From Candidatus Bathyarchaeota archaeon (GTDB lineage Archaea > Thermoproteota > Bathyarchaeia > 40CM-2-53-6 > RBG-13-38-9): 64,000 nucleotides of DNA. Made by a program: the position numbers and the translations under genes. Location: assembly GCA_963807605.1 (NCBI GenBank), contig CAWECG010000005.1:11761-75760 (forward strand), in the 5' to 3' direction. How positions within the stretch are numbered: the stretch's first letter is position 1; every line of letters begins with the position of its first letter. This document shows positions 12,570-51,398 of this stretch, in pieces. Below the pieces are notes generated by a model. That model did no database searches. It was not told where the DNA came from and saw only the letters and a list, made by a program, of their open reading frames with translations.

Positions 12570-12582
12570 CTAGCGCGCGCTT
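12570..12582. repeat. GC-palindrome junction motif CTAGCGCGCGCTT (intergenic)
   Basis: Same motif as the demonstrable junction fillers at 20251, 20399 and 21221. Confidence 0.6.
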
Positions 12583-12695
12583 ACATTTTGGTGTGTTTCC
12601 AATGGAAGCGCAGGCGCAGTCGAACGAACTCAACGGGAACAACTAGCAAATCAGAAGACGATTAGGGTGCGGGTACTCGATGGCATCCGTCTTCT

Positions 12696-13664
12696 TTACG
12701 TGTTCAGTCTCTTACTCTCTTTCCATTCCACAAACCTTCTGAGTCCCTCTTTTAGGGAGAACTTGGGTTGGTAACCTAACACCCTCTTCGCTTTGGTTAT
12801 GTCCCCGCAACTGTGCCTAACATCCCCACGTCTAGGCTCATCATGGTTCGGTTTAACCCGCGTTACATTCATTACATCCATCAACGTTTCCGTCAACTGA
12901 TTTATCGTTGCAGCGAGTCCGGTTCCCACGTTGATCACCTCTCCGGGAGCCTCTTTAGATACTGAAGCAAGAACCTGCGCTTCAACAACGTCTTCTACAT
13001 ACGCAAAGTCCCTTGTCTGTTCACCATCACCATGGATGATAGGCGGTTCGCTTCTAAACAGCCTATCAACAAGCTTCGCTATGACTCCACTGTACTCTCC
13101 GGACACCTGCCTGGGACCGTAGACGTTAAAGAGACGAAGAGAGACCGTTCCGAGGCCGTAAACCTCATGGAACGCCTTGCAATATGCTTCAGCTGAAGCT
13201 TTGGAAGCGGCATAAGGAGAAAGAGGGGAAGATGGTAAGCCCTCATGCTGAGGCGTAACATTGGAATCTCCGTAGACTGCACATGAAGAAGCAAGAATGA
13301 ATCTTCCAAGATTTGAGTTGAGGCTAGCCTCTAGCAGATTCAATGTGCCATTTACATTCACGTCGTGAACAGATTTAGGATCCTTAACGGACAGGGGGAC
13401 TTCTATGATAGCCGCCTGGTGAAAGACGACATCGACCTCCTTGATCAGGTGTCGAACTAACTTGGGATCCCTTATGTCGCCTTTCACGAAATGAAAACTC
13501 TTCTTCCCGACATATGCTGAAAGATTTTCTTCTCTTCCAGAAACAAGATTGTCAAGAACTGTAATCTCGAGATCGTTCCTGATCAGCCTATCAACTATGT
13601 GACTGCCGATAAAGCCTGCACCGCCAGTCACTAGAGCTGTCGAATAACCCCTAGACAAAGACAA
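12696..13664 (-). CDS. NAD-dependent nucleotide-sugar epimerase/dehydratase (UDP-Glc/GlcNAc 4-epimerase-like)
   Basis: GGAGFIG, HQAA, YAASK, FNVYGP, TRDF. Confidence 0.92.
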   Translation of the reverse strand: MSLSRGYSTALVTGGAGFIGSHIVDRLIRNDLEITVLDNLVSGREENLSAYVGKKSFHFVKGDIRDPKLVRHLIKEVDVVFHQAAIIEVPLSVKDPKSVHDVNVNGTLNLLEASLNSNLGRFILASSCAVYGDSNVTPQHEGLPSSPLSPYAASKASAEAYCKAFHEVYGLGTVSLRLFNVYGPRQVSGEYSGVIAKLVDRLFRSEPPIIHGDGEQTRDFAYVEDVVEAQVLASVSKEAPGEVINVGTGLAATINQLTETLMDVMNVTRVKPNHDEPRRGDVRHSCGDITKAKRVLGYQPKFSLKEGLRRFVEWKESKRLNT

Positions 13665-13719
13665 TAATCCCCTTCCAAAGCACCAATCAAACCAGTTCGG
13701 GAACCATGATTACACCAAT

Positions 13720-14105
13720 TCAGAGGCTCATGAACGCGTTTTCGCCAGCCATCAGCTTTTATCCTTTAGGCAAATTTGTATCCGCAGAACAATCTTGGAA
13801 TTGGTGCCTATCAGACTGTCGACTATTTGCTTCCCACATTGAATGATTGAGTTATCCAGGACTATTGTATTCTCTATCTCGCCGCCGTCAATGACAACAT
13901 TGTCAACGATGGATGTGTAACGTCCGATATATGTTCCAGCGCCGATCTCGCAATTCTTACCTATAATCTCAGGGCTTCTAACGCAACATCCTTTAGGAAT
14001 CACTGTTCCCTCACAAACGCCAACCCTGCCCATTATGGTCATCTCAGCCTCAACCTTACCCCTATTGAACAGCTCCAGCTCTGATAGAACAAGCTGGTTT
14101 GCTTC
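13720..14105 (-). pseudogene. C-terminal fragment of a glucose-1-phosphate thymidylyltransferase (RmlA long-form paralog)
   Basis: EANQLVLSEL...IIGKNCEIG.GTYIG.YTSI...GGEIENTI...ENAFMSL aligns with the C-terminus of 51928-53001; frameshifted; starts directly after TAGCGCGC. Confidence 0.85.
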
Positions 14106-14143
14106 GCGCGCTAAAAGACTGAGCGGTTTACCAAGAAAGGTGT

Positions 14144-15259
14144 CTATGTCGACAAACCTTTGCGCCCAATGTTCCTCCATATCACCATCTCCAAGAAAGC
14201 CTCTCTTAAACCACTCATAAAAGAGGTATTGGCGCACGCTAGTATGCGCCGTAGGTAAACGTGTTCAGAAGGCTCACACTTCTTAATGGGCAGGTACATG
14301 CTGGAAAGTATCTCCTCCTCGCTAGTAACTCTACTGGCCTGCACTCTTAGCCGCCAAGCATATGTATACCTGAAATTGAGCAGATTCCACAGGATCGCTC
14401 TTGCGACCACGATCGCCTTCCTAGGCTCATAGATTAAGAAGCCTGCAGCGGCTATTAGGCTCAAAAGAAAATAGCTGTTTAGAGCCCAAGGGAGTGAGGA
14501 GCCGCAATTTTTGAGGATCGCAGTCAAAAGATGTCTATGACAATAGTAGAGCCTACGTGTGTTCACGGTCTTATCTCCGAATGTACCAGAGAAATAGTGG
14601 GCAACCTTGGCTTCAGGTGCAAAAGCTACACAATATCCTAAGAGTCTCAGCCGCCAACACAATTCGGGTTCTTCACTAAAAAGGAAGAACCTGCCATCAA
14701 AGCCTCCAACCTTTACAAAGATGTTCCTCCTGATCAGGGCAGCCGCCCCACAGAATGAGAAAGGTTCGAAACTCCCAGAGTCATACTGCCTTTGGTCAAG
14801 CTCTTTTCGCCCTATGTCAACGAAGCCTCTCCAGAAGGGTATTCCCATTCCCCCAACTGAGTCCAGTCGTGAGTGATCCTCCATTGAGACCAACTTGGAA
14901 GCGACAGCAGCGATTCTTGAATCTGCTGTAGCGGCATCAACTAAACACTTAACCCAACTCGTATTCAAAACCTGAGTGTCAGTATTCATTAGCAGAACAT
15001 AATCAGCCTCAACCTTCTCTATTGCTCTGTCATATCCCTCTGCATAACCCAAGTTCCTTCCGTAGCGGATTATCTTAACCCCTGGAAAACGTTTCTGAAC
15101 ATAATCCACAGATTCATCGGTACTCCCATTATCCACCAAGTAAATGTCTAGGTTTGGATAATCAGTATTAGCGATGCTTGATAGACAGTTGGGTAGCCAC
15201 CTCAATCCATTATAGTTAAGTACCATCACTGCAACACGCACGCATGCTCCACCAACCAA
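14144..15259 (-). CDS. GT2 glycosyltransferase, paralog of 11330-12439; C-terminal tail probably scrambled
   Basis: VAVMVLNYNG, VGGMGIPFWRG, EPFSFCG shared with 11330-12439; a TAGCGTGCGC motif sits at 14232-14241 near the end. Confidence 0.85.
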   Translation of the reverse strand: MVGGACVRVAVMVLNYNGLRWLPNCLSSIANTDYPNLDIYLVDNGSTDESVDYVQKRFPGVKIIRYGRNLGYAEGYDRAIEKVEADYVLLMNTDTQVLNTSWVKCLVDAATADSRIAAVASKLVSMEDHSRLDSVGGMGIPFWRGFVDIGRKELDQRQYDSGSFEPFSFCGAAALIRRNIFVKVGGFDGRFFLFSEEPELCWRLRLLGYCVAFAPEAKVAHYFSGTFGDKTVNTRRLYYCHRHLLTAILKNCGSSLPWALNSYFLLSLIAAAGFLIYEPRKAIVVARAILWNLLNFRYTYAWRLRVQASRVTSEEEILSSMYLPIKKCEPSEHVYLRRILACANTSFMSGLREAFLEMVIWRNIGRKGLST

Positions 15260-15426
15260 AGACCCTCCAATCAGGTTCAGTCACCTACTCAATATTCGGA
15301 TTATGGGAACCGCCCGCCGGCGTTGCCAATATGATGCCAATCTTCCACCAACCTTCCATTGTGAGTATAGAAGCCTTTCTGAATCATGGACCCCAGCGCG
15401 CGTAATCCTCCCTCCCTCAGCGCACG

Positions 15427-15590
15427 CTCCTTCCATTGTAGTTGATGACAACTACAGCGACTTCTGCAATCTTGGTCAATTTGCCTCTCTCTGCACCCGG
15501 GTTGTCTCAGGGTTCAAGCGCTGTGCGATATTTAATGGAAGTTTGGGTAGCCTATACTGATATTGTTATTTCATTCTTTCCACCTGACCA
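15427..15590 (-). repeat. 164-bp dispersed repeat, copy 1 (upstream region plus first codons of a GT2 gene)
   Basis: Near-identical to 19412-19575; encodes TTG-TKIAEVAVVVINYNGR on the minus strand and is cut at AGCGCACG. Confidence 0.9.
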
Positions 15591-16108: not shown

Positions 16109-19084
16109 ATGAGATCTGGATTGAATCGAAGACTCCCATTTGATATGTTCCAGAGGTACATGCTTACAAAGGAGATCATCGATGCCGTCAAGGGAATTCG
16201 AAACGCGGCTATCTTGGATGTCGGCGGTCATCCAGGCGTCATTTCAGACTTTTTGCCCATGGATGAAACGTACGTTATAGACTTGAAGGTTTGCAGGAAG
16301 AGAAATTTCATAAGAGCCGACTGTCAATTCTTGCCCTTTAGGAGCAGAGTTTTCGATGCCGTTACCAGCATCGATGTTTTGGATCATCTTCCTAAAGGAA
16401 AACGTCTTCCAGTTCTGTACGAACTACTTAGAGTGAGCAGACGCTTCGTAGCCATAGCCGCCCCTTTTGATTCGGAAGACGTGAGAAGGGCAGAAGATAC
16501 TCTCTACGACTACGTCGTGAATGTGCTTAGACGAGAGGACGAGAATCTCAGGGAGCACGCCATGTATGGCCTTCCGAATCTAAATGAGCTCCGAAATTTC
16601 CTCGATTCCCAGAAGCTAGTTCATTTGGAGTTCTCAAACGGTTTCTTGAGCAGCTGGCTTCCAATGCAAATGTTGAACTTTCGCATCTCAAGTCCAGAAG
16701 TCTATCAACGGGTGAACCAACTTTACAACTTTGCATTCTACCAGTACGACAATCTAGAACCCTCCTATCGAAAAATCATATTGATCGACAAAATTTCTAA
16801 GGACTCAACAGAACTTTCAGCTAGGACTGAGTCCATTAAGAAGAGAGAACTGGAAGACCGCTCATCGGAGAAACTCGAGCTCCTTCAGCGCGCACGCGCT
16901 AAGCTTGCCCTGGCTCTGGGCATCGCTCTGGATGAAGGTTTGCAGGGCCTATTTCGAAAGACCGTCGATCATTATGTTAAGCGACGTAAGCAATTCTTTG
17001 AGCTTGATCGTGATGAACAGTATCAGATATGGCTAAAGAACAATGACTTGACTGAAAAGAAAGTTCTTGAAATGCAGCAGGAAATTTCAAAGCTGAGTTT
17101 CAAACCGAAGATCAGTATTGTTATGCCTGTCTACAATACGAGTGAAGAATGGCTCAAATTAGCGATAGAATCCGTTTCAAATCAATCCTATCCCAACTTG
17201 GAACTCTGCATAGTTGATGATGCCTCAACAAATGCATATGTCAGGAAGATTCTCAAGTCTTATGGCGCAAGGGATAACAGAATCAAGGTTAGATTTCTGG
17301 AAAAAAATCTCGGGATCTCTGGGGCGTCGAACGAAGCCTTAGCGATGGCTAGTGGGGATTTTGTGGGATTTTTGGACCATGATGATGAGCTTACAAAGGA
17401 TGCCCTGTTTGAGGTTGTCAAGGTTCTTGATCAGAATCCGAAATTGGATTTGATCTATAGTGATGAAGATAAGAAGGATTTGAATGACCGCAGGGTTGAG
17501 CCCTTCTTCAAGCCTGATTGGTCCCCAGACCTTTTGCTGTCTATGAACTACTTATGCCATTTCAATGTGATAAGAAAGAGCTTGATAGATGAGGTTGGCG
17601 GTTTCCGCTTGGGCTTCGAGGGTAGCCAAGATTATGATCTGTTCTTGAGGGTTACGGAGTTGACCGATAAGATTGCGCACCTTCCAAGACCTCTCTACAG
17701 CTGGCGTAAAGTTCGCGGCTCCGCTGCAGCCTCGACGGAGGCGAAGCCATACGCTCGGGAGGCTTCAAAGAAGGCCTTACGCGAGGCTATTAATAGGCGT
17801 GGGCTGTCCGGAGAAGTAACAGACGGCTTTGGCGGTCACTACCACATTCAATACTCAATCAGAGGCACACCCCTAGTGAGCATCATAATACCGACAAAGG
17901 ACCGGCTTGATCTATTGAATCGTTGCATAGAGAGCATCGAGTCAAACACATTTTACAAGAACTACGAGATAGTCATCGTTGATAACGAAAGCATCGAACC
18001 CGCTACCCTTGACTATCTTAAATCTCAACCTCATACCGTCGTAAGGTTTGAGGGCCCCTTCAACTTCTCAAAGATCAATAATTTCGGTGCTAAGCATGCT
18101 AAAGGTGAACATCTACTTTTCTTGAATAATGATGTTGAGGTTGTTGATGGGGATTGGCTGGGCGCAATGCTTGAGCACTCACAGCGTACTGAGGTCGGAA
18201 TAGTTGGGGGGCTCCTGCTATATCCTAGTGATGAAACCGTGCATGCTCCAAGCACAATTCAGCATGCAGGAGTGATCGTAGGGGTTGGAGGAGTGGCTGG
18301 GCACGCATTCAAGTACAAGCTGGCAGACGACTCTCAATACTTCGATCTACACAGGGTCATTCGAAATTGCAGTGCAGTGACGGCCGCCTGTGCAATGATG
18401 AAGCGAAACGTATTCGAGGAGGTTGGCGGGTTCGATGAGAATCTCAAGGTGGCATTCGGCGATATAGACCTCTGTCTACGTGTGAGGGAGAAGGGATACC
18501 GAATCGTCTATACACCACACGCCGTGCTGCGCCATCATGAGAGCGCAACTAGAGGCGAGATGCATCCGTTCGAGGACGAGACCTACATGATAGATCGGTG
18601 GAGAAGCTTCTTCATTAGAGGCGATCCTTACTACAACCCCAACTTGACGCTTCTCAAAGAGGACTATTCTCTTGCATCGAAAGGATCCGTCATCAGACCT
18701 CTCTCAGTGCTTTTCGACATTTACTATCTCAGACCAGATTTACGGAGGATCTGCCCTGAAGCGCGTAATGGTGATTATCAGAGGCTTATCGACTGGGCGG
18801 CCACTAGTGGCATAACAGTCGGTGCTGTGAGAGTGGCACTTCGACCCTACGGTGCCTACTATGCCTCCAATGCTTCTGATGGTGTAAAGCCGCTAGCCGC
18901 TTTGATAAATCTCTACAATTATAGGATAGAGCTCCAAAGTGGGTATCCTGAGGTTTTGAGAGGGGAATTTCGACGCTTGGTCAGCTGGGCAAATGAGGTG
19001 ATTGCTAAGACTTTTGATGATAAAGCGTATACTGCCTTGAAGCCATACGAGGCAAGCTACCGTTCACTCATGGAAAGCATATGA
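16109..19084 (+). CDS. Multidomain methyltransferase-GT2-GT2 glycosyltransferase (WsaE-like) with two C-terminal RxDL/EL...PE repeats
   Basis: ILDVGG MTase motif; ISIVMPVYN...FLDHDD...YSDEDK...FKPDWSPD...GSQDYD; VSIIIPTKD...FLNND...SAVTAAC. Confidence 0.88.
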   Translation: MRSGLNRRLPFDMFQRYMLTKEIIDAVKGIRNAAILDVGGHPGVISDFLPMDETYVIDLKVCRKRNFIRADCQFLPFRSRVFDAVTSIDVLDHLPKGKRLPVLYELLRVSRRFVAIAAPFDSEDVRRAEDTLYDYVVNVLRREDENLREHAMYGLPNLNELRNFLDSQKLVHLEFSNGFLSSWLPMQMLNFRISSPEVYQRVNQLYNFAFYQYDNLEPSYRKIILIDKISKDSTELSARTESIKKRELEDRSSEKLELLQRARAKLALALGIALDEGLQGLFRKTVDHYVKRRKQFFELDRDEQYQIWLKNNDLTEKKVLEMQQEISKLSFKPKISIVMPVYNTSEEWLKLAIESVSNQSYPNLELCIVDDASTNAYVRKILKSYGARDNRIKVRFLEKNLGISGASNEALAMASGDFVGFLDHDDELTKDALFEVVKVLDQNPKLDLIYSDEDKKDLNDRRVEPFFKPDWSPDLLLSMNYLCHFNVIRKSLIDEVGGFRLGFEGSQDYDLFLRVTELTDKIAHLPRPLYSWRKVRGSAAASTEAKPYAREASKKALREAINRRGLSGEVTDGFGGHYHIQYSIRGTPLVSIIIPTKDRLDLLNRCIESIESNTFYKNYEIVIVDNESIEPATLDYLKSQPHTVVRFEGPFNFSKINNFGAKHAKGEHLLFLNNDVEVVDGDWLGAMLEHSQRTEVGIVGGLLLYPSDETVHAPSTIQHAGVIVGVGGVAGHAFKYKLADDSQYFDLHRVIRNCSAVTAACAMMKRNVFEEVGGFDENLKVAFGDIDLCLRVREKGYRIVYTPHAVLRHHESATRGEMHPFEDETYMIDRWRSFFIRGDPYYNPNLTLLKEDYSLASKGSVIRPLSVLFDIYYLRPDLRRICPEARNGDYQRLIDWAATSGITVGAVRVALRPYGAYYASNASDGVKPLAALINLYNYRIELQSGYPEVLRGEFRRLVSWANEVIAKTFDDKAYTALKPYEASYRSLMESI

Positions 19085-19199
19085 AATTATTTCATTCATC
19101 AAAACGTGAGGCCGCTTCTTACGGAAGCGTAAGTTCGCTTCCTCCTTCCAATGTTAGGGATGCTTAGTTCTCATATACTTCGGAAGATGGATACTCACC

Positions 19200-19464
19200 C
19201 GTGCCATCATGTTTTATTATAGTTTTTTGGGACGCCATAACCGTAGGACAAGCTCCTACTTGGACTGATTGAGGAGGTTTCTGGAAAATAGCGTGTCGGA
19301 CAAGAGAATTCTCCAATCCGAAAACCATGCCACAACACTTGGGCAATGATCTCGTTATCAAAAACGAAGTTGTTAGAATTATCTGCATGGGGTCTTTATC
19401 GATGAAGCCACCTCCTTCCATTGTAGTTGATGACAACTACAGCGACTTCTGCAATCTTGGACAA
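19200..19464 (-). pseudogene. Chimeric GT2 remnants: N-terminus of one GT2 joined to the C-terminus of a DPM1-like GT2
   Basis: Translates as MSKIAEVAVVVINYNGRRWLHR* then NSNNFVFDNEIIAQVLWHGFRIGEFSCPTRYFPETSSIS. Confidence 0.7.
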
Positions 19465-19575
19465 TTTGCCTCTCTCAGCAGCCGGGTTGTCTCAGCGTTC
19501 CAGCGCTGTTTGATATTGAATGGAAGTTTGGGTAGCCTATACTGATATTGTTATCTCATCCTTTCCGTCTGACCA
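19412..19575 (-). repeat. 164-bp dispersed repeat, copy 2
   Basis: Matches 15427-15590; identity stops exactly at GCGCGCG 19576-19582. Confidence 0.9.
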
Positions 19576-19904
19576 GCGCGCGTTCCTAGCTTTACAGGCT
19601 AGTAGAGCTCAGCGATTCGACTCCCCACTTTCCACCTCACAGCTCCGGATGTGTCCGGCCGTCGCCTGTCCATGCAGACTATTGATCGAAGAGGCGCGGT
19701 CAGATACTTAAGTGCAGAGGCGATGTCATCGGAGGAGTCCCCAGGCAAGCCCGACACTTGTTTCGGCCAGTATTCCCGAGGAGACAAATTCTCACGACGC
19801 ATCGGTGCAAGAGACACAAGCCAGTTCCGTAAGAATGCTTTCTGAGTTCTCAGAAATATATAGAACAACCAGATGAGTCACACAATATGATCTAGCTAGC
19901 AACA

Positions 19905-20836
19905 TGTGTCCCTCTATATGAAGGAGGAGAATAGTCATGAAGAGTTGGGAGAGGGACATAATTGGATCTCGTGCTGCGTCGAAGAAGGTGGATTATCCAT
20001 AGAAAACTGAAAGGCCGGAAGATCAGGGATATCGTTAGTGCGCTGCGGATAAACGAGAAGACCGTTGACCGATGGTGTATCGTCCATCAGAAAGATGGGT
20101 GGGAGAGGCGGGTAGTAAAGTCTAGAAGACCACACCGATATTACAAGACCCCACAGTCAACAGTGAACCTCATCGTCGAGCTGAGACACAGCAAACGTTG
20201 GGGGCCAAACAAGATCGAAGGATACCTAAGAAACTACAAGGTCGAAGGCAAGCGCGCGCGTCGAAGGCATCACACCTGTCAACCATAGAACCATCCATCA
20301 AATCCTAGTCGAAGACAGACTGAATAATCCTATCTCTGCACCCAGAAAGGTCTGGGGTAAGCACAGATTCCAGCGGGAGCACAGCAACAGCCCATGGCAA
20401 GCGCGCGCTAGGCGACCATATCCGCTTCATTCCAGGCTCAAGAATCCACCACAACCCAACAACAGAGCAGGCGATCAAGCTCCTTGAAGAATACATGATA
20501 CAATGCGGGAAGCCCAAACAGATACTGCCAGATAGAGGAACCCAGTTCTATCCTGCCAGAGGAGGCAGGTCAGAGTTCACAAAGTTCTGCAGTGGAAATA
20601 GTATCGAGCATATTGTCACAAGCGTAAGGAGACCATCCACAATCGGCAAGATCGAGTCCTTCCACAAAGCGTACGTCTGTGAGTCATGGATGTTTCCCAC
20701 CCATGAAAATTTTGTGAGTTACTGGAATTACGAAAGACCTCCTCAGGGAATCAGTTATCTATATCCAGCAGACACATATTTTAGAGAGCTAAACATACTC
20801 ACAGATGTGGGGGGGATAGAAGACTGGGAAGTTTGA
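19905..20836 (+). mobile_element. IS481-family transposase, inactivated (ends approximate)
   Basis: HTH plus SRRPH, WGPNKI, REHSNSPWQ, DH.RF, P..IL.DRGTQF and TIGKIESFHK integrase-core motifs; broken at 20251 and 20401. Confidence 0.85.
20241..20269 (+). repeat. 10-bp direct duplication GTCGAAGGCA flanking filler AGCGCGCGC
   Basis: gtcgaaggca-agcgcgcgc-gtcgaaggca read directly from the sequence. Confidence 0.95.
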
Positions 20837-21028
20837 ACGGTTGGCGCTACTCTCAGTCACGCGCGCGCTTCATTGTGTGCTGATCACGCGTCTGTTCTGA
20901 GATCTCTCTGAACCTTTGATGTCCGTATTCTACTTCTCTCCAGATATCGCCCACCATCAGTGCAGCACCGAATGATTGAATTGTTGCGAAGCGAATTGAC
21001 TGGCTCAGGTTACTTGTGGCGATCTTGA

Positions 21029-22351
21029 GTGATGGGAACTCTTAAGCTCGCGATCCAATATGCACGCAGGTTTGGTTTGAGGAGATCGGCCGCAGCACTT
21101 CTTCTGTACCTCAGTCGGAGATTGAACTCAGATATAGGCGTGAGCCATGTGGACGCGTTGCTCAAGTGTCGGTACTATGTGAAGAGGGAGTTGCTGAGTT
21201 ATGATTTCTCGTCAACGGATAGCGCGCGCTATGTGAAGAGGGAGTTGCTGAGTTATGATTTCTCGTCAACGGATCTCGCGAAGAACAAAGCCATCATGGA
21301 TAAATGGAATGCGACTTCGCCCAAGACGATATCTTGTGTGAACTGGTTTCTCCCGGACTATCATTCACCTTACGCTGGCGGTATTTATACTGCTCTGCGT
21401 TTTGCTAAGGCTTTCTCAACAGAAGGCGTATTGAACAGGATCATCATATTTGATGGCCCCTACCATCGAGACCCTCGTGCTACAGCTTCGGAGATCAGAT
21501 CTCTGTTTCCGAAAATGGGTAGACTCGAAGTCCTCGTCAACCCTTCTAAGATACCGGACAGCACAATATGTATTGCAACATTTTGGCCGACTGCATACGT
21601 CGCGCTGAAGTTCAACAACACACAAGGCAAGTACTACCTCATCCAAGATTTCGAGCCACTATTCTACGCAGCGGGACCATACTATGGACTTGCAGAAGCG
21701 ACCTACAGATTTGGGTTCCTAGGGATCACGAATGGTCCGAGACTGAAAGAGATCTATCGAAACCAGTACGGAGGTGACGCTGAATACTTCTTTCCTACCC
21801 CAGATACGAATCTGTTCTATCCCTCGCCTGATCAGCCTAGGTCCAAGGTATCCCGCGTCTTCTTCTATGCCAGACCCGCGATGGAGAGGAATGCTTTCGA
21901 CCTGGGAATCCTGGCACTGGAAAGACTCAAGAGAGCTCATCCGGATTTGGAAATCGTTACTGCTGGCTGGGATCTGACTGCACACGAGATGCCAATCCCC
22001 GTCACGAACTATGGCTTGCTTAGCTTGAAGAAAACTGCTGAACTTTATCGGAGCTGTGACATGGGGTTGGTCTTCATGTTCACTAGGCATCCTTCGTACC
22101 TTCCAGGGGAGTTGATGGCAAGCGGATGTGTCGTCATCACCAACAAGAATCCTGATAATGCGTGGCTGCTGCGTGACCGAGAGAACTGCCTGCTAACTGA
22201 GCCGACCGTATCCAGCATCCTGGAGACATTTGAGCTGGCCATGGCGGATTATGATCTGCGAAGGAGTATTGTGAGGAGAGGGTCGGAGACTGTGAAGCAA
22301 ACGAACTGGGACTTGGAGATACGTCGCGTCATGAAGTTCATAACTGGCTAG
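21029..22351 (+). CDS. GT4 glycosyltransferase, WsaF-like rhamnosyltransferase family
   Basis: NWFLP...GGIYTALRF, ATFWPTAY, YLIQDFEP.FY, FFYARP...RN.F.LG, HPSYLP.ELMASG. Confidence 0.8.
   Translation: MMGTLKLAIQYARRFGLRRSAAALLLYLSRRLNSDIGVSHVDALLKCRYYVKRELLSYDFSSTDSARYVKRELLSYDFSSTDLAKNKAIMDKWNATSPKTISCVNWFLPDYHSPYAGGIYTALRFAKAFSTEGVLNRIIIFDGPYHRDPRATASEIRSLFPKMGRLEVLVNPSKIPDSTICIATFWPTAYVALKFNNTQGKYYLIQDFEPLFYAAGPYYGLAEATYRFGFLGITNGPRLKEIYRNQYGGDAEYFFPTPDTNLFYPSPDQPRSKVSRVFFYARPAMERNAFDLGILALERLKRAHPDLEIVTAGWDLTAHEMPIPVTNYGLLSLKKTAELYRSCDMGLVFMFTRHPSYLPGELMASGCVVITNKNPDNAWLLRDRENCLLTEPTVSSILETFELAMADYDLRRSIVRRGSETVKQTNWDLEIRRVMKFITG
21175..21274 (+). repeat. 46-bp direct duplication flanking filler AGCGCGCG (in-frame, +18 codons)
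   Basis: 21175-21220 equals 21229-21274; protein reads YVKRELLSYDFSSTD-SAR-YVKRELLSYDFSSTD. Confidence 0.97.
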
Positions 22352-22362
22352 GAGTCATTGGC

Positions 22363-25300
22363 TCAGAAGCCGAGCAGGCGCGGATTGATGAGGTAACAGG
22401 CATGTTCAGATTCGGTTGACAGATTCTTGTTGTAAAACGGGTCACCATTCGCAATATCATCTCTTAGCTTCTTAATGAAGTAGTTGTAGTCGGAAGACGG
22501 GAATGCCTTCCCTCTTGTTGCCCCTTCACGATGATAGAGGACTGCATAAGGATTGTACACAATCTGGTATCCTGCCTTTCTCATTCTGATGCAAAGATCG
22601 ACATCGTTTCCTCCAACCACAAGGCGTTCATCGAAACCTCCTACAGCCTTGAAGACATCTCTCCTAACAAGCATGCAGGCTGCGGTGACTGCTGAGCAGT
22701 TGCGGATCATGTGTGCTAATCCAAAGTAGCCTGGTTCGGCGTTTGGCATTCCGCGAAAAGGATGACCTGCTGTTCCTCCCAGTCCCAAGACCACGCTTGC
22801 ATGTTGGATTCGACCATCGGGATAGAGCAACTTCGCTCCAACACAGGCCACATCGTTTCTGGTGTCAAGTATCCCGACCATCTCCCCTAGCCAATCCGCT
22901 TGCATGGCCTCGGTGTCGTCGTTGAGGAACAGTAAGTAGCGTCCCCGTGCTGTGCTAGATGCGGAGTTGTTGAATTTTGCGAAGTTGAATTCATCCTCGA
23001 ATCTGATGATCCTGTGGCCAAGAGATCGCAGATAATCCAACGTTTCCGGCTTTCGACTATCGTGATCAACTACCACTATCTCGAAGTTTCTATATGCCGT
23101 TTTCTTCTGAACGCTCTCTATGCAAGTCTTCAACAAGTTCGGATTGTCATGTGTTACTATGATGATGCTTACGAGCGAGTCGCCCTTCGGGATGTACTTT
23201 ACGCGGTACCATTGGTTATAGCCATCGAGGATTCCCCCATGAATTCCTCGTCGCTCAAGAGCTTGTGCGAGCGCCTGTTTTGCCGCCTCCCTTGCTGTCG
23301 GTTTGGCTGACAAGGATAGTGCAGTCGAGGTAGGGGTCATCCTCCAACTGTAGATGGACTTCGAGACGTGATAGATTTGGTTAGTCCTCTCGACCGCCCT
23401 CAGTGCAAGATCGTAATCTTGACTCCCTTCAAAGCCTGCGCGGAAGCTCCCGAGCTCTTCAAGAAGAGAACGTCGGTAGACTATGAAATGCGGGATGTAG
23501 TTCATCGAGAGGAATAAGTCAGGAGACCAGTCCGGCTTGAAGAAGGGATCGATTCGTTTGTCGTCAACGTCTATCTTGTCCTCATCAGAGTATATGATAT
23601 GTGCGTCAGGGTGCTCATTGACGCACTTGACCACTTCATACAGGGCTTGATCAGTCAGCTGATCATCGTGATCAAGAAACGCTACGAATTCTCCCATTGC
23701 AAGCTCTATCGCCGCGTTGGATGCCTGTGCAATACCCGATCTCTTGCGGAGGAAACTGACTTTCACTCTGTGATCAAGTTTGCGATAGTAGTCCAGCGTT
23801 CGTGCCACGGACTGGCGCGTCGAGCTATCGTCTACTATGCACAACTCCCAGTTCTCGTAGATCTGACATCGTACTGATTCTATTGCCGCTCTGAGACATC
23901 TATCATCAGTCTCAAAAACGGGCATGACTATGCTGACAAGTGGTTTCTTGAACATCTTCGCAATTTCCAGCCTGAGTTTCGGGATTCTCACCTGGTCTGG
24001 CGGATCGCTAGCAAGGAAGATTTGATACTGTTTATTCAATGGAAGAGCCATGAAGGCCTTACGCGAAATGTGATGACTTGCTGGTGGCGCCGCATTCTTT
24101 CTGGAGGCTACCAATCTTGCCATCATCATGGTCTGAGAAAAGAGCATCTCCAGAATCCTGCGTCTCAGGCTCTTAGGTGGAAGCTTCTCGACCAGAAGTT
24201 GCCTGTAGCCAAGAATTAGTTGCCACCCAAGGCTTCCTTCTATTTCCCCAAGTTTGCGCTGCACTGAGTCTTTCTCGTCTGCAGTTCTGGCTAACGCTTC
24301 TCTTATTTCCCCAAGTTTGCGCTGCACTGAGTCTTTCTCGTCTGCAGTTCTGGCTAACGCTTCTCTTATTTCCCCAAGTTTGCGCTGCACTGAGTCTTTC
24401 TCGTCTGCAGTTCTGGCTAACGCTTCTCTTATTTCCCCAAGTTTGCGCTGCACTGAGTCTTTCTCGTCTGCAGTTCTGGCTAACGCTTCTCTTATTCGAG
24501 CAAGTTCGACCCAGGGACTCGACTTGTACCATTCAGCATACCGCATCAGTCGGCGATAATCTTGATCAACACGATCGTCGACAGTATTCCCGGCCCATTC
24601 CACGAGACGACCATAGTCGCCTGCCAGAACTTCTGGAAAAGCTTGCTGGAGATCGCCTCTCATCATATACAATTGGAGAAGCACTGAAAGAGGATCGGAG
24701 AGAGATTTCGAGAGCCTGTTAATTAGCGCATTTCTTGACGCAACCGCTCGCGCGTTAGCCTTCAGGTATTCTGCCTCGCTCCCCCATATCAGCCCCTGCA
24801 CTTCAGTAGAGATTTGTCGTTTTCCTGTTCGTCGTATCGGTTTGAAGGCTTCAACTCTCAGTTCATATAATTCCCTGGCCTTCTTTTCCCTAAGGTTGCC
24901 GATTCTCTCCGCTGAAGGCAGCCGCGTGATTCTGCTGAACCCAGTCTTCAAGAGCTGGTGACTGAGTAGATCGTAATCATATCCTGAGCGGTGAAAATCT
25001 GACCAGTGACTTTGATTACCATAGAATGTCGAGGCAAGGCGGTCTAGGTCTCCAATTCTATGCTCTAGATTTTGAGTCAGAAGGTAGATGCGACATAGGG
25101 CAGAAAAGTCCGGGCAAGAGATCTCGAGCCGTGAGCCTTTCTTCATGATACGGTAGGATTCTTTGAGGAAGAGCAATCCGTCAGCGTAAGAAAGGTGCTC
25201 TAGTAGATGCGAGCAGTAAACCCCCTTAGTGACTTCCGAGTCGAAAGGCAAACACGTGGCATCCGCAACAACATCAATTCCAGGAGCAGGTCTCACGTCA

Positions 25301-25368
25301 ACCTGGATAGCTTCCGGCCAGTGCTGGAACTGTCCGCTTCCAATCTCAATATGCACATCTCCTTTCAT
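22363..25368 (-). CDS. Multidomain methyltransferase-coiled coil-GT2-GT2 glycosyltransferase (WsaE-like)
   Basis: IEIGSG...DA..LPF...SHLLEH MTase; 21-aa heptad repeats; two GT2 domains paralogous to 16109-19084. Confidence 0.9.
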   Translation of the reverse strand: MKGDVHIEIGSGQFQHWPEAIQVDVRPAPGIDVVADATCLPFDSEVTKGVYCSHLLEHLSYADGLLFLKESYRIMKKGSRLEISCPDFSALCRIYLLTQNLEHRIGDLDRLASTFYGNQSHWSDFHRSGYDYDLLSHQLLKTGFSRITRLPSAERIGNLREKKARELYELRVEAFKPIRRTGKRQISTEVQGLIWGSEAEYLKANARAVASRNALINRLSKSLSDPLSVLLQLYMMRGDLQQAFPEVLAGDYGRLVEWAGNTVDDRVDQDYRRLMRYAEWYKSSPWVELARIREALARTADEKDSVQRKLGEIREALARTADEKDSVQRKLGEIREALARTADEKDSVQRKLGEIREALARTADEKDSVQRKLGEIEGSLGWQLILGYRQLLVEKLPPKSLRRRILEMLFSQTMMMARLVASRKNAAPPASHHISRKAFMALPLNKQYQIFLASDPPDQVRIPKLRLEIAKMFKKPLVSIVMPVFETDDRCLRAAIESVRCQIYENWELCIVDDSSTRQSVARTLDYYRKLDHRVKVSFLRKRSGIAQASNAAIELAMGEFVAFLDHDDQLTDQALYEVVKCVNEHPDAHIIYSDEDKIDVDDKRIDPFFKPDWSPDLFLSMNYIPHFIVYRRSLLEELGSFRAGFEGSQDYDLALRAVERTNQIYHVSKSIYSWRMTPTSTALSLSAKPTAREAAKQALAQALERRGIHGGILDGYNQWYRVKYIPKGDSLVSIIIVTHDNPNLLKTCIESVQKKTAYRNFEIVVVDHDSRKPETLDYLRSLGHRIIRFEDEFNFAKFNNSASSTARGRYLLFLNDDTEAMQADWLGEMVGILDTRNDVACVGAKLLYPDGRIQHASVVLGLGGTAGHPFRGMPNAEPGYFGLAHMIRNCSAVTAACMLVRRDVFKAVGGFDERLVVGGNDVDLCIRMRKAGYQIVYNPYAVLYHREGATRGKAFPSSDYNYFIKKLRDDIANGDPFYNKNLSTESEHACYLINPRLLGF
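24241..24496 (-). repeat. Perfect tandem repeat, 4 x 63 bp (IREALARTADEKDSVQRKLGE)
   Basis: Identical units start at 24241, 24304, 24367 and 24430, with no spacers. Confidence 0.97.
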
Positions 25369-25460
25369 AGTCTGACTAGTTCTCCTATGCCTGAGAATGA
25401 TTCGGTCCCTTGTAGCGCTAGCAGGAAAGGGTGACTTAAAGACAGCGCCAGGAGATCATA

Positions 25461-25492
25461 TTTAGCTGTTGATTGAATCCCTCTGGCTTCAG
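25461..25492 (-). repeat. 32-bp dispersed repeat CTGAAGCCAGAGGGATTCAATCAACAGCTAAA, copy 1
   Basis: Exact matches at 61148-61179 and 61872-61903. Confidence 0.9.
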
Positions 25493-26055
25493 TCCAAGTG
25501 TGTGGAGCCATTCTGCTCCTTTCTGGGTGAATAATCCTTATTCTGCTGGAGGCTTGACGCCTTCGTATGTGAGGAGGTTCTTTATCTTGACTCGCAGTTT
25601 GACGCGTTCCCTGACCAGGAATGCTCTTCTTCTTACCTGCTCTCGGAGTGCCGCTGTCTCCTCATCAGGCATTTATGCTGAAGGTAACGCATTCAACCTT
25701 ACCAACTCAGCTATCACTTTAGAGTCGACTCTATCACTCTTTATCTTTGCCTCAGCGATGTAGCGTGTCTTCTTCGGATGAGAGACAGATACGTCATAAC
25801 CTTTCTTTCTCAGCTGTCTGTACAGCGGTACTACTTGATAGGAGGCTTCCATACCGATTCTATTTATTTGATAATCCGAGAGTATGAGAGAATTCTATCA
25901 TTCGCCATTCTTTTCTGACTGACTATTTCACCGTCACAACTCACGATTGTTGCATAGGTTGAATCCTTATGCACATCTAAACCGCAAAAGTAAGCGCTCA
26001 TAGTATGGCATGAGCGCTGACGCTTACCAAAAGCTCTTCCCATACCATCGCGCTA
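25493..26055 (-). mobile_element. IS110-family transposase remnant (5' part, with stops and a frameshift)
   Basis: ATG at 26001: MSAYFCGLDVHKDS...IGMEAS...HPKKTRYIAEAKIKSDRVDSKVIAEL (DEDD RuvC-like domain). Confidence 0.85.
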
Positions 26056-26085
26056 ACAACCCCCAACCTCACCCTTCTAGCGCGC

Positions 26086-27211
26086 TAGCCTCTTGCAATA
26101 TTCTTGGGCTTAACATGAAGATGTATACGTGTTTTTGATCATAAGATCGATGAGCTTTACACCCGCTCATGCCGTTTCTGGTGAAAAAGGAGTGAGCGAG
26201 TGTAAGGCTCTGTATGATCTGTTTCAGGCTTTGGATTTAACGTTTGTAGAACAAGTCTTGGAAAGAAGCTATGGGAGAAGAAGCAGGGTCGGCAGACCCC
26301 ATAGAAATTTACTTGGAATGTTCAAAGCAGAGCTCATCAAACGGCTAAGACATATCGAAAGCTATGAGGAATTGTATCGGCTCTTGTGGAGTGACGGTGA
26401 ACTCTGCAAACTCTGCGACATCAAGGAATCAGAGAATCCGTATCACCCATCAATACTTCTGAGGTTTCGACGTAGAATAGGCCCTCAAGGATTTCACCGC
26501 CTCATGAACCGTCTGATCAAACAGCTCGACCACAGCGGCATTCTGGACTCTGAAATCCTAGCGTTAGACGCCACATTCATCAAAGCTTACAGTCGAAGAG
26601 ATCCTCACAATACCCAGTGTGGATTATCTGATTCTGAAGCCAGATTACGAAAACAAGGTAGAAACGTTGTCTTAGGCTACGGCATCCATCTGGCTGTAGA
26701 TGCTGATAGTGAGATGCCGGTGGCAGTCACAGTGGAACCTGCAAACGTCAACGAAAAGAAGATCGCATCCCACCTACTCCATAAGACCTTGAAGTACAAA
26801 CATAGGTGGAAGAGCGTGACTGCAGACTCACAATACTCCAGCGAATCCTTCAGGGATAAGGCAAGATCCATAAGTGTTGAGCCTGTCATCCCCTACCCCA
26901 AGAACCAGATGAAAGGCAAAAGAGTTCTACGTGTTGACAGAAGATTCCACACCCACGGACCTGCAAGGCTGAGACGTCTCTACCGAAAACGATCCTCTGT
27001 TGAGAGAACCGTCTCACGATTGAAGACACACTTCGGACTGTGCCAACTTAGAACCCGAGGATTAAGAAACGTCCTGTCACATGTAGTCCTATGCTTGATC
27101 GCAATGTTGACGGCTGCTCTATCAGCGATCAAGCAAGGATACACCCACAGAATGCGGTCACCAGTCCAACTCATGAAATTGACAGGACTAAAGTAATATT
27201 GCAAGAGGCTG
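26086..27211 (+). mobile_element. IS1182/IS5-like insertion sequence with 17-bp terminal IRs and GCGCGC target duplication
   Basis: IRL tagcctcttgcaatatt 26086-26102; IRR aatattgcaagaggctg 27195-27211; GCGCGC at 26080-26085 and 27212-27217. Confidence 0.88.
26129..27196 (+). CDS. DDE transposase (DUF772 + DDE_Tnp_1 type), apparently intact
   Basis: GRP, P.HPS.L.RFR.R, ALDAT, GY..HLAVD, ADSQYSS, YRKRSSVER...RLK. Confidence 0.88.
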   Translation: MFLIIRSMSFTPAHAVSGEKGVSECKALYDLFQALDLTFVEQVLERSYGRRSRVGRPHRNLLGMFKAELIKRLRHIESYEELYRLLWSDGELCKLCDIKESENPYHPSILLRFRRRIGPQGFHRLMNRLIKQLDHSGILDSEILALDATFIKAYSRRDPHNTQCGLSDSEARLRKQGRNVVLGYGIHLAVDADSEMPVAVTVEPANVNEKKIASHLLHKTLKYKHRWKSVTADSQYSSESFRDKARSISVEPVIPYPKNQMKGKRVLRVDRRFHTHGPARLRRLYRKRSSVERTVSRLKTHFGLCQLRTRGLRNVLSHVVLCLIAMLTAALSAIKQGYTHRMRSPVQLMKLTGLK

Positions 27212-27217
27212 GCGCGC

Positions 27218-27655: not shown

Positions 27656-28039
27656 GTATTCGCAGCGACAACGAGCGATATTTCGCATACACGTCATCGA
27701 AGGTGAGGAAGTTAATCGGCGAGAAGAAAGTTATAGTGGCGATGAACCGACGGACAACGCATCGAAGAAGCTTCGCATGATCTACGCGTGCGTAGAATGT
27801 TACAGTCCTCTTGGATTCTGAGTTCGAACAGTAGCTACTAACAAATGTTTTCAATGACGTATCACTAACATACAAGGGCAAACGTGCCCGCAATGATGGT
27901 GTAGCCGATTTCATACTCTAGACATAGGCGAGGTCGCTGACATTGCCTAAATTCAGTTTACTTTCGAGTTTAAGCCTGTCAAATCGGATTTCACAGAAGC
28001 TGAGGATGGTCAGCGCGCACTAGACTTGAGGTGTTCTAA

Positions 28040-30679: not shown

Positions 30680-30805
30680 GGTTCTAGAGGCGGAAGGCAA
30701 ATAATTAGATCTTGCTATAATCCGATAAATGATCTCACCCGTTTGCTTATCACATACAGGATGCTGTAACGATTTTAGTTCGGCGCTTGGACACTATTCA
30801 ACGTT

Positions 30806-48549: not shown

Positions 48550-48597
48550 TAGCCGCCATAAACTGTCCTGTGCCATCTCAATAGAAGGATTATAGGA

Positions 48598-49918
48598 AAT
48601 GCGCAGGAAAACCCACGGCTTTAGTCGTGGGATGAATTGCGTTTCAGAGTGAGATGCCAGATGTTTAAATTTTGTTCAAAACATGTATTTGTTGATGGTT
48701 GAGATGCTTCTAGCCTACAAGTACCGTATATACCCTAAGGTGGGGCAGGGAAGGCTGATGAAAAGCCACCTGTCCGCATTGTGTGAGCTATACAACACAC
48801 TTAGGGACCTGAAGATTGGTACTTGGAAACAGGAGCATGTCAGCCTGAGCAGAACCGACTTGAGGCTGAAGGCGCTAGGGCTTAGACGAGAAGACGAGAA
48901 TCTTCAGGGAATACATAGTCAGGTTGTCCAGAGCGTTGCTACAAGGCTTGCGGAGATCATTCAAGAACTACTTTGAGGGTAGAGCAAGATTTCCCAAAAA
49001 TAAACATCCAAAGAAGTATCTCTCTCTCACCTATCCACAATCAGGCTTCAAACTATGCAACAGTAAACTGTACCTCTCGGGGATAGGGGATGTCCGAATC
49101 TTCATGCATAGACTGGTGGAAGGTCAAGTCAAAACTTTGACTGTGAAGTACAATGCTGGACAGTGGTATGTGGTATTCGCCTGCAAAATTCCAGATCAGG
49201 AGAAGACCCCCATCGAGAAGATTCCTGATGGACGGATCAAAGGGGGAGACATAGGGCTGATTAAGTTCCTAACGCTTTCAGATGCAACCACAATGGAGCC
49301 ACCGAGATTTCTGAGAAAGTCTGAGGATAAGATCAAGAGGCTGCAGCGAGTAATGTCAAGAGCAAAGAAGGGTTCAAGAAATAGGAGAAAGCTGGCTTTG
49401 AGACTGGCAAAGCAACACCATCATGTAGCATGTCAGAGAGCTGATTACCAAAACAAGACGCTAGCAACGCTGTACAAAACCGCTGATATCCTATTCTTGG
49501 AAAGACTGGCTGTAGCTAACATGGTAAAGAACCACTGCCTAGCCAAGAGCCTCCAAGACGCTTCGCCCGGAAGGTTCTTCCGTAAGGCACAATTCAAAGC
49601 CAACCTACTCGGTAAATGGTTCATGCCGGTCGACCCATGGGGTACTACACAATTCTGCCACAACTGCCTATCATGGGTGGCGAAAGACCTGAGCGAGAGA
49701 GATCATATGTGTCCGAATTGCGGTGAGTCGATTCCAAGAGACGAGAATTCAGCTAAACTAATCAAGAAGATTGGTCTGTCAGGCTTCAAACCCGACTATG
49801 CCCACGGACGGTGGGTGAATACGCCCGTAGAGTCTAAGCCTCTGCCATCCCTAAGGGGAATGGTAAGCAAAGATGTTGAAGCGGGAAGCCCACGGCTTTA
49901 ACCGTGAGAGGATGTCAC
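48598..49918 (+). mobile_element. tnpB: IS200/IS605-family solo tnpB element (tnpB 48683-49901, +1 frameshift near 48951)
   Basis: Hairpin ends cccacggctttagtcgtggg and gcccacggctttaaccgtgag...gatgtcac; AYKYRIYP, D-E-D RuvC residues, Zn-finger CxxC...CxxC. Confidence 0.9.
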
Positions 49919-49929
49919 AGGCCCAAATC

Positions 49930-50688
49930 TTGAGAGCCCTGATTCTGGCGGGAGGCTATGCAAAAAGGATGTGGCCTCTCACGAGGGACATCCCAAAAAC
50001 CCTGCTTACTATTGACGGCCGACCTGCGATAGACTACCTCGTAGAGCGGCTAGTCGAAGCCAAGATGACTCGCATAGTTGTGTCTACAAATCTGAAATTC
50101 AAACCTCAATTCGAGGCTTGGCTCCAAGGTAGACAAGACAGCAACGTTGAGATCGTGGCAGAGAGTTCAACAAGGGAGGAAGAGAAACTTGGTGCAGTCA
50201 AAGCACTAGCGGAACTCGGTCCAGGACTGGAATCTGATGACTATTTGATAATAGCTGGCGACAACATATTCAATACTAGATTGAATGGCATAATCAACTT
50301 CTACAAACGGAAGAGAGCTTCTGTAGTGGCCATCATAAAGGCTAACAACGAGGACGAGGTCAAACTAGGCTCTTCAGTCCTGCTCGCTAATGACATGAGG
50401 ATAACCAGTTTTGAGGAAAAACCATCCCAACCTAGAAGTATGCTTATTGGCGCGTGTATCTACCTCATGTCTAAGGACACCATTTTGAGATCCATCGAAT
50501 ATTTGAGTCAAGGTGGAAGAACAGATGAACCTGGCAACTTCGTAGCTTGGTTATGTAAAAAGGAGCCTGTATACGGATATGTGCTACAAGGGCGTCTCTG
50601 GGACATCGGCACGATCGAAAGCTACGAGCGACTCAAACAGGAATTCGCTGGCCCAGAAGTGAATTCATCTACGAAAACAACCATATGA
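49930..50688 (+). CDS. Sugar-1-phosphate nucleotidyltransferase (possibly HddC-like)
   Basis: TTG start, ALILAGG...R..PLT...PK.LL, AGDN, EEKP, W.DIGT. Confidence 0.82.
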   Translation: MRALILAGGYAKRMWPLTRDIPKTLLTIDGRPAIDYLVERLVEAKMTRIVVSTNLKFKPQFEAWLQGRQDSNVEIVAESSTREEEKLGAVKALAELGPGLESDDYLIIAGDNIFNTRLNGIINFYKRKRASVVAIIKANNEDEVKLGSSVLLANDMRITSFEEKPSQPRSMLIGACIYLMSKDTILRSIEYLSQGGRTDEPGNFVAWLCKKEPVYGYVLQGRLWDIGTIESYERLKQEFAGPEVNSSTKTTI

Positions 50689-50900
50689 AACAATCCAAAG
50701 AATGACATAAAGGGCTTCATTGATCCTCGAATATTCTCAACCTGCCATCTCTGCAATTGCACGCCTATGTGAAGTTTCTATTTAGTTCCTTCTCCTCGCC
50801 GGGATATCGTAAGGGCATGCACCTATTCGCCCACAGGTGGAGCATTATGGCTTCGCATCCAGGAGAGAAAGACAGAAGAGAGGCCTTCACATAGGCGCGC

Positions 50901-51398
50901 CTACTTTTCAAAGCTCGGATTTTTCAACCAGTCCCGGAGCATCCTCTTGTAGTTAGCACCGATAGGTTTGATCCTGTCGATATTGTCGGCTTCAAACCAT
51001 GTATATCGTGAAAGTTCAGGCGTCGGTGTAGGATTTCCAGATCTCCATTCTGCGGCTATACAAATTGCTATGTCATGGCGAGAAGGCAATCTTACAGGGT
51101 ATAACCCCACAAAATAGGGCTTGTGAATTTTCAGTCCACTTTCTCTGCATTGACGTATTGCGGTCTGGCTGAATGATTCTCCACGAGTAATTCTTCCTCC
51201 AATCAAAGCCCAGACATTCTTGTACGGCTGGATTGTTCGCCAGCCCATCAGAAATCTATGCTCAGTCCAGACTATTGTGTCAACACATGGAATTGGCATC
51301 TTTCCAGTAACTTCACGCCAACAATCCTCACTTATCAGACATGATCTTTGAGGCGGCATATCCATGTCACATATGGAGATCAGAATGAGTAGAATCAT
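50901..51398 (-). CDS. Nudix hydrolase (GDP-mannose mannosyl hydrolase-like)
   Basis: MPIPCVD, R...PYK..W...GGR...GE....A.R...E.G. Confidence 0.75.
   Translation of the reverse strand: MILLILISICDMDMPPQRSCLISEDCWREVTGKMPIPCVDTIVWTEHRFLMGWRTIQPYKNVWALIGGRITRGESFSQTAIRQCRESGLKIHKPYFVGLYPVRLPSRHDIAICIAAEWRSGNPTPTPELSRYTWFEADNIDRIKPIGANYKRMLRDWLKNPSFEK

Follow-up and report, generated by a model that had tools for sequence, protein, structure and literature searches.

Why does one short palindrome of alternating G and C recur where genes appear to have been broken and rejoined? This question is raised by a stretch of 64,000 nucleotides (the window) from Candidatus Bathyarchaeota archaeon, positions 11761-75760 of contig C5 of the source genome (G000), which is a metagenome assembly of 2.65 Mb in 5 contigs with 47% GC. 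An initial annotation of the window regarded the palindromes as scars of a DNA end-joining system. In our analysis, in which the junctions are known from assembled sequence alone, they are read, with a probability of about one half, as a fixed self-complementary filler left at rejoined breaks by some as yet unnamed activity. The typical form is the 8-base palindrome GCGCGCGC, and any stretch of alternating G and C is called a run below.

Junctions within the window

The window copies of GCGCGCGC and of A(GC)4T were confined to 12-32 kb, and the region of 11-33 kb is a cluster of glycosyltransferase and polysaccharide genes. All of the motifs listed by the initial annotation were present, those at 14232, 15419, 16887 and 28012 as decayed copies. 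It had placed a breakpoint at roughly ten of them; a breakpoint could be demonstrated at seven independent sites out of the 17 listed (14105, 15420, 19576, 20252, 20401, 21222 and the split site 26080/27212), and the others had no paralogue or relative for comparison. The features at the seven sites, together with the insertion sequence (IS) that splits one of them, are as follows.

14105-14111, 7-nt run ending a truncated orphan hexapeptide-transferase fragment (Pfam Hexapep)
15420-15427, decayed run (GCGCACGC) bordering, on the left, a 164-bp segment repeated at 19412-19575
19576-19582, 7-nt run bordering the second copy of the 164-bp segment on its right
20241-20269, + strand, transposase pseudogene with GTCGAAGGCA (10 bp) duplicated on the two sides of the 9-nt filler AGCGCGCGC
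20401-20408, + strand, (GC)4 in place of about 50 nt, in the same transposase pseudogene as 20241-20269
21175-21274, + strand, perfect 46-bp tandem duplication around AGCGCGCG (21221-21228)
26077-26085, left half of a split CTA(GC)4TAG palindrome, 26082-26085 being one copy of a GCGC target duplication
26086-27211, + strand, IS5/IS1182-like IS of 1126 bp with 17-bp terminal inverted repeats
27212-27220, right half of the split palindrome, 27212-27215 being the second GCGC copy

At site 21222, two exact 46-bp copies (21175-21220 and 21229-21274) enclosed the run, and the resulting 54-bp insert added 18 codons in frame to an intact WsaF-like glycosyltransferase gene (21029-22351), about 60 codons from its start. 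The homologue on L011, a metagenome contig which served as the outgroup for this site (78% amino acid identity), was collinear on both sides, including the N-terminus, and carried a single copy of the 46 bp without a run, which indicates that the insert is derived. Two further sites lay in one transposase pseudogene (with weak Pfam matches to rve and HTH). At site 20252, the 10-bp copies were exact (20241-20250 and 20260-20269), and the paralogue C3:309531-309797 aligned on both sides of the filler with a 19-nt offset and a change of frame. At site 20401, the offset to the paralogue C4:657249-657793 shifted by 38 nt across the run, a net loss of about 38 nt.

The other sites were represented by interrupted homologies. 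The two copies of the 164-bp segment (15427-15590 and 19412-19575) were 93% identical and were flanked by the runs at 15420 and 19576 on opposite sides; at site 19576 the homology ended flush at ACCA, directly followed by GCGCGCG. The protein homology of 13788-14105 to 51997-52314 of the window (54% identity over 106 aa) ended at the run of site 14105. After removal of the IS and one GCGC, the split site 26080/27212 read CTTCT-A(GC)4T-AGGACT, where the paralogous gene (compared over 18633-18680) reads CTTCT-CAAAG-AGGACT at 18650-18665, and a fragment paralogous to 18660-19068 followed directly after the right half-palindrome. The initial annotation was correct on several points: the duplication lengths of 46 and 10 bp were exact, the run inside the intact gene kept the reading frame, and the motif stood as a derived insertion between duplicates, in place of deleted DNA or at the end of orphan fragments.

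Abundance, repeat endpoints and joint structure in the genome

The palindrome was greatly over-represented, as judged against counts calculated analytically with Markov models of order 1-3. In the source genome, GCGCGCGC occurred 298 times versus 14-18 expected (17-21 fold) and A(GC)4T 106 times versus about 1.3 (about 80 fold); the corresponding numbers in the window were 6 versus 0.4-0.6 and 4 versus 0.03-0.05. Run lengths decreased geometrically from 4 to 7 nt (7041, 1420, 321 and 127 runs) and then formed a bump, with 198 runs of 8 nt, 74 of 9 nt and 36 of 10 nt. Among the 269 in-phase sites, the core was (GC)4 at 246, (GC)5 at 18 and (GC)6 at 4. The flanking pair A..T was found at 113 of these sites, the left base being mainly A or C and the right base mainly T or G; positions +-2 were A/T-rich only, and palindromic symmetry past +-2 was at chance level.

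About 85% of the runs of at least 8 nt were located outside the open reading frames (ORFs; crude calls covering 79% of the genome). The intergenic runs occupied spacers of above-average length and showed neither a positional bias towards gene starts or ends nor a preferred orientation relative to them, and all runs were strongly clustered along the contigs. Their decay consisted mainly of CpG to TpG or CpA changes.

Self-comparison of the genome showed that runs coincide with the ends of repeats. Among the 447 runs of at least 7 nt, 102 lay at the end of a within-genome repeat, and 95 distinct repeat endpoints fell within 8 bp of a run centre, versus 9-16 when the endpoints were shifted by 100-400 bp. 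Repeat endpoints were met at 5.9% for runs and at 1.0% for random intergenic positions. In 49 of the 54 low-copy pairs, the partner had no run at the matching point and its sequence continued there. Both the excess over a Markov background and the enrichment at breakpoints, for which the initial annotation had proposed genome-wide checks, were confirmed.

The events with both sides known differed widely in size. Gains amounted to +46, +42, +10, +8, +8 and +12 bp, and replacements or losses to -4/+7, -5/+10, -6/+10, about -38 and -252/+8. Among them were a 252-bp stretch replaced by (GC)4 at C3:253659, an older 42-bp duplication at C1:91826-91927, whose 18-nt filler had decayed, two 8-bp duplications around a run, and a near-pure insertion of 12 nt at C1:249149. 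This range of +46 to -252 bp bears out the view that the junctions are unlike a fixed transposon footprint. A pair of 1.8-kb copies, 99% identical, carried one run each at opposite ends while the other ends continued natively, a pattern expected from two staggered breaks joined elsewhere. Duplication of the flank on both sides of the run was rejected as a general rule, since duplications of at least 6 bp were present in only 11 of the 447 runs, versus 1.5% in controls.

The joints themselves were analyzed at 46 one-sided junctions, of which 14 were flush, 10 had one extra base (A in 7 of them) and 15 showed an overlap of 1-4 nt with the ancestral sequence. The base before the run was A in 35 of the 46, and in 23 of these 35 the A was common to the uncut paralogue; if the A always belonged to the insert, such sharing by chance would be about 27%. 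Because the A was ancestral in these 23 junctions, the joined ends tend to stop at A, and microhomology of a few bases was frequent. An extra CTA or TTAA was occasionally present at joints. The TAG/CTA edges which had been taken as part of the filler did not stand, as only the adjacent A/T was enriched, the A was ancestral in 23 of 35 and the symmetry ended at +-2. With regard to synthesis-dependent microhomology-mediated end joining (SD-MMEJ), the overlap of 1-4 nt was present in 15 of the 46 junctions, and no local template for the filler exists near the break. Copying of the flanks of other palindromes gained little support, since the sharing of 4-6 flanking nt between palindromes was only 1.1-1.3-fold above the column-shuffled null.

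Comparison of copies demonstrated, at the level of sequence, that the insertion is derived and is accompanied by variable duplications, deletions and mosaic joints, that its core is fixed and its ends A/T-biased, and that old copies decay by CpG transitions.

Two kinds of repeats were also seen next to runs. An 80-nt repeat family (TATAGATAACTGGCT...TTCTAGGAT), at C3:187153-187231 and about 10 other loci, was regularly trailed, 10-15 nt on, by an intact or decayed GC run, and this regular spacing implies that run and repeat were inherited jointly. Tandem arrays with a unit of about 120 bp, in a repetitive and apparently coding region, were found at C1:338700-339650 and C3:456560-456880, and one end of such an array abutted a 10-nt GC run at C1:518300.

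Insertion sequences, distribution and candidate enzymes

The IS at 26086-27211 encodes a 355-aa DDE transposase at 26129-27196 (Pfam DDE_Tnp_1 and DUF772), whose best NCBIfam matches were the IS1182 and IS5 models, both below the cut-off. Seven copies were present in the genome, and a second family, with a transposase 42% identical to the first, contributed seven more. With the IS boundaries set by the inverted repeats, alternating GC was found on both sides in 13 of the 14 copies (5-9 nt each, mostly 6+6), and the last 4 nt on the left were equal to the first 4 nt on the right in 13 of the 14 (6/7 and 7/7 by family). The copy at C3:246504 had a run on the right only and a non-palindromic target duplication, ACGC. 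The rebuilt target was (T)A(GC)4T(A), in the centre of which the 4 bp GCGC were duplicated. Five copies were 99.9-100% identical to each other yet differed in the length of the run in the right flank, and IS copies in four relatives had GC flanks as in the source genome. Since the right-flank lengths vary and the ACGC copy lacks a left run, the GC run is the target of the IS rather than its end. Both IS families are, on the evidence of their flanks, later users of the palindrome and not its source.

The IS ends as a source of the runs were rejected by this target-duplication logic and by the distribution. Searches for the transposases were negative in seven run-rich genomes of the family of the source genome and in 8 of the 10 run-rich genomes examined from other families. 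IS elements often drop out of metagenome bins, but the run-rich genome G083, described below, is a single contig. The claim that an IS had hit the motif later was upheld, the palindrome having served as target with a 4-bp GCGC duplication, and the search for a full-length element whose footprint matches the motif gave none, the flanking GC being target and no such element occurring in G083.

The other listed sites of the window, most of them without a comparator for the ancestral state, are given next.

12573-12580, (GC)4 in CTA-GCGCGCGC-TTA, between convergent GT2 glycosyltransferase and epimerase genes
14232-14240, decayed run GCGCACGC
15396-15402, 7-nt run located 17 nt upstream of site 15420
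16888-16900, + strand, GCGCGCACGCGC in frame (QRARA) within an intact 991-aa glycosyltransferase gene, a possible deletion site, homology to a 1001-aa paralogue beginning only 25 codons downstream
20860-20868, 9-nt run about 160 bp upstream of the WsaF-like gene
28013-28018, AGCGCGCAC just upstream of a YfhO-like gene
30806-30812, 7-nt run
31280-31287, A(GC)4T
31550-31557, (CG)4 near the 3' end of a PMT-like gene
50895-50900, TAGGCGCGCCTA, a palindrome with a differing core

The core at the last site (50892) is GGCGCGCC, unlike the other listed sites, and this palindrome is probably outside the GC-run family.

Other features of the window were also recorded. A stretch of 570 bp (25485-26055) was 75-90% conserved in ten relatives, multicopy in one of them, and always stopped at the same right-hand base (26055-26057); it had no Pfam or Rfam match and may be the end of a mobile element or a non-catalogued RNA. 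A gene for an IS200/IS605-type Y1 transposase, one of four in the genome, was located at 60651-60989 on the - strand. The stretch 24241-24496 was read in the initial annotation as a perfect 4 x 63-bp in-frame repeat of a 1001-aa glycosyltransferase gene. Rfam and tRNA scans of the window gave no matches, a look-up of the exact epimerase protein gave no record, and in a DNA-level comparison with 19000-32000 of the window (13 kb) as query, the genome from the same genus matched the IS only.

The distribution of the motif and of the candidate genes and IS was tested in 41-201 Bathyarchaeia genomes per test, the counts of A(GC)4T being controlled with the reversed word. Most genera of the family of the source genome had 16-119 copies per genome, two genera had 0-4, and most other families of the order had at most 3. 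Strong enrichment was patchy among 201 genomes: all five genomes of family f29 were rich (13-131 copies), as were a few genera of f17, and sister genera differed by 0 versus 30-120 copies. One genome, G183, had 14 copies, with its runs in four or five islands, versus 0-1 in 10 of the 11 sampled genus-mates and 3 in the remaining one. The single-contig genome G083 (1.98 Mb, 39.6% GC), from another family, contained 601 GCGCGCGC words versus 7-27 expected, with (GC)4 cores at 276 sites and (GC)5 cores at 124. In this genome, 33 repeat endpoints lay at runs versus 9-11 in shifted controls (3-fold), the partner copy also had a run in 10 of 29 cases, and no repeat family with runs at both ends was seen. 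Ku, the LigD Prim-Pol, the Y1 transposase and both IS families were not found in G083.

The enzymes named by the initial annotation as candidates did not account for this distribution. An operon for non-homologous end joining was present in the source genome outside the window (C1:589600-592250, locus L033), with ORFs for a LigD Prim-Pol of 287 aa, a Ku of 266 aa and a ligase. The operon is of bacterial type in an archaeon, and its ATP-dependent ligase is split into ORFs of 91 and 215 aa. Among the 41 relatives searched, Ku was restricted to the source genome and one other family; searches for it were negative in all 15 other genomes of the family of the source genome, as well as in G083, G091, G100 and G095. 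All four genomes of the Ku-bearing family f2 had at most 2 copies of A(GC)4T. PolX was present in G000, G004, G083, G095 and G100 and was not found in G001, G002, G003, G007, G015, G091, G094 and others, while 48 of the 50 genomes of f22 and all 4 of f19 carried it, both families being without specific enrichment of the motif. The PolX gene of the source genome, also outside the window (C1:345081-346910, L034:883-2712), encodes a full PolX-PHP polymerase of 609 aa and adjoins an IS copy. It is 67% identical to the PolX of G083, well above the median of 41% for shared proteins, which suggests that it was transferred horizontally.

The remaining candidates gave similar results. No match to the reverse transcriptase family RVT_1, the only family of reverse transcriptases searched, was obtained in the source genome, and none to the pRN1-type Prim-Pol (PF09250) in it or in the 15 other searched genomes of its family. 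Of methylases, only the 5-methylcytosine (m5C) type (PF00145) was tested, and it occurred in only one other genome of that family. Three of the four run-rich relatives checked for Y1_Tnp (G003, G083 and G091) gave no match. Ku, LigD, PolX, Prim-Pol, the Y1 transposase and the m5C methylase were rejected as determinants, since none of them tracks the motif.

Explanations of the palindrome and comparison with known systems

If the palindrome is a filler, DNA ends joined without homology would retain a short self-complementary block between them, almost always (GC)4. The ends so joined may belong to a single break, lie 5-250 bp apart, be staggered between sister chromosome copies or stem from different loci. 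They usually stop at A, so that the opposite side starts with T; and in about one third of the junctions the first 1-4 bases of the block are already ancestral, pointing to annealing or microhomology at the joint. Addition of (GC)4 to each 3' end, or the use of a (GC)4 duplex made beforehand, may supply the tails, which would then anneal and be ligated. Such tails could come from a dedicated activity or from microhomology-primed copying of existing palindromes, and because they are self-complementary, any two ends could be annealed and ligated. A core of fixed length speaks for a unit that is measured or templated and against free polymerisation. The bias to A, together with the overlaps of 1-4 nt, suggests that the end is aligned on a T(CG)4A-like template or on the tail of the partner, and the range of events from +46 to -252 bp fits variable end processing and joining between chromosome copies. 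A more specific form of this explanation, which we regard as doubtful, is that a dedicated and horizontally spreading activity adds measured (GC)4-5 3' tails, preferably after A, in a type of archaeal end joining independent of Ku, LigD and PolX, and thereby drives gene-fragment mosaics and provides safe landing sites for IS.

Several results weigh against the filler explanation. Every candidate enzyme class tested failed to track the motif, and none was identified as the source. Some recent repeat boundaries had no run, so not every joint was patched. In G083, (GC)5 made up 29% of the sites, and the length of the core is therefore not universally fixed. The polarity of the events was mostly assigned by parsimony from within-genome paralogues, and an outgroup was used at site 21222 only.

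The main rival reverses the order of events. The palindrome would have been inserted alone, as a very small mobile unit or by an activity resembling an integrase or transposase, and would have become a hot spot of cutting and exchange later, for example through IS transposases that cut its centre or through the fragility of cruciform or Z-DNA. In favour of this order, the centre of (GC)4 is recognised and cut by two IS families, and the runs are concentrated in variable islands. Insertions that are nearly pure, such as the 12 nt at C1:249149, are seen in a few cases, the partner also bears a run in 10 of 29 cases in G083, and the patchy, island-like spread across the class fits a spreading element. 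We nevertheless consider this order possible rather than probable, since more steps are needed for most of the observed joints. With the partner lacking a run in 49 of 54 pairs, each mosaic requires an insertion and a later exchange; the 99%-identical 1.8-kb pair would take several steps within 1% divergence; the adjoining duplications of 8-46 bp and deletions of 4-252 bp have no fixed integration geometry; and the IS were not found in most run-rich genomes. This last point also bears on the proposal that the runs are footprints of excision, that is, terminal bases and target duplication left by a cut-and-paste element. Footprints of transposons are palindromic because the two ends are inverted repeats, and GC flanks did stand on both sides of 13 of the 14 IS copies, and likewise in the four relatives. 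However, the varying right flanks among near-identical copies and the ACGC copy identify the flanking GC as target, and excision, given a 4-bp duplication, would yield (GC)6 or bring back (GC)4 and could not seed new runs with duplications of 46 or 10 bp. Flank duplications were rare (11/447) and varied from 8 to 46 bp, G083 had no run-ended repeat family, and the transposase was missing from the searches of most run-rich genomes. The footprint proposal is thus largely refuted, and we regard it as very improbable.

A selected intergenic signal for binding, termination or methylation, similar to HIP1 or REP, would explain why about 85% of the runs of at least 8 nt are outside ORFs, why the end of the 80-nt repeat family is followed by a run at constant spacing, and why the motif is hyper-abundant like HIP1, which is 15-300 fold over-represented (PMC5861425); the joints would then be apparent only, produced by paralogue similarity that ends at gene borders. 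This is unlikely, since repeat endpoints at runs exceed those at random intergenic positions (5.9% versus 1.0%) and runs with flanking duplications are found within an intact gene and in pseudogenes. Many copies are decaying, no orientation preference is seen, and m5C methyltransferases do not track the motif. That the runs are chimeric joins of the library or assembly is conceivable for a metagenome assembly of 5 contigs, but hardly credible when enrichment of the motif recurs across many independent assemblies, one of them a single contig, when IS have inserted into runs with proper target duplications, and when copies decay by point mutation and the insert in the intact gene keeps its reading frame. 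The footprint, regulatory-motif and artefact readings are all poorly supported.

The filler explanation would have consequences for the study of archaeal genomes. How most archaea rejoin breaks without Ku is poorly known, and if hundreds of joints carry a constant patch, it would form a legible scar, which could date and locate rearrangements, explain the gene-fragment mosaics in variable islands and account for IS elements specialising on scars. The sharp and patchy distribution of the motif also provides a handle for finding the responsible gene by comparative genomics.

In the open-access literature, no description of this motif from archaea was found, and the comparison was made with four known systems. 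HIP1 (GCGATCGC) of cyanobacteria is a hyper-abundant, lineage-specific 8-nt palindrome of unexplained origin (PMC5861425, PMC4390886), and it has been tied to cognate methyltransferases (PMC4390886). The archaeal motif likewise shows an over-representation of at least 15-fold. HIP1 is located largely inside genes; of the archaeal runs, in contrast, about 85% fall outside ORFs. The archaeal motif also originates by insertion at joints, and its distribution is not tracked by m5C methylases.

REP and BIME sequences are imperfect hairpins of 20-40 nt with a GTAG or CGTC head, a RAYT gene being the proposed spreader, and are targeted by IS; IS1272, of the IS1182 family, inserts into inverted repeats and replaces the target without duplication (PMC2817692, PMC5678879). 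As in this type of targeting, the IS described here are specific for short palindromes, and the transposase resembles the IS1182 and IS5 models. Unlike IS1272, they keep a perfect palindrome of 8-12 nt and duplicate 4 bp. Unlike the REP/RAYT system, the symmetry of the archaeal motif ends at +-2, there is no enrichment of G at -3, and Y1_Tnp was not found in G003, G083 and G091.

Telomerase adds a fixed sequence de novo onto broken ends after a short alignment. Such healing caps the ends, whereas in the present case a single unit would be added and the ends then joined, and RVT_1 was not found in the source genome. N-nucleotides are added at junctions by TdT, Pol mu and the LigD polymerase. 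End-joining junctions, including those of synthesis-dependent MMEJ, can also hold filler DNA and templated insertions (PMC2943611). Like these fillers, the archaeal runs place extra bases exactly at joints, with small deletions or duplications and microhomology of 1-4 nt. Unlike them, the archaeal filler is present even in genomes in which searches for Ku, LigD and PolX were negative, and whereas known fillers vary or copy nearby DNA, it is the same 8-nt palindrome hundreds of times.

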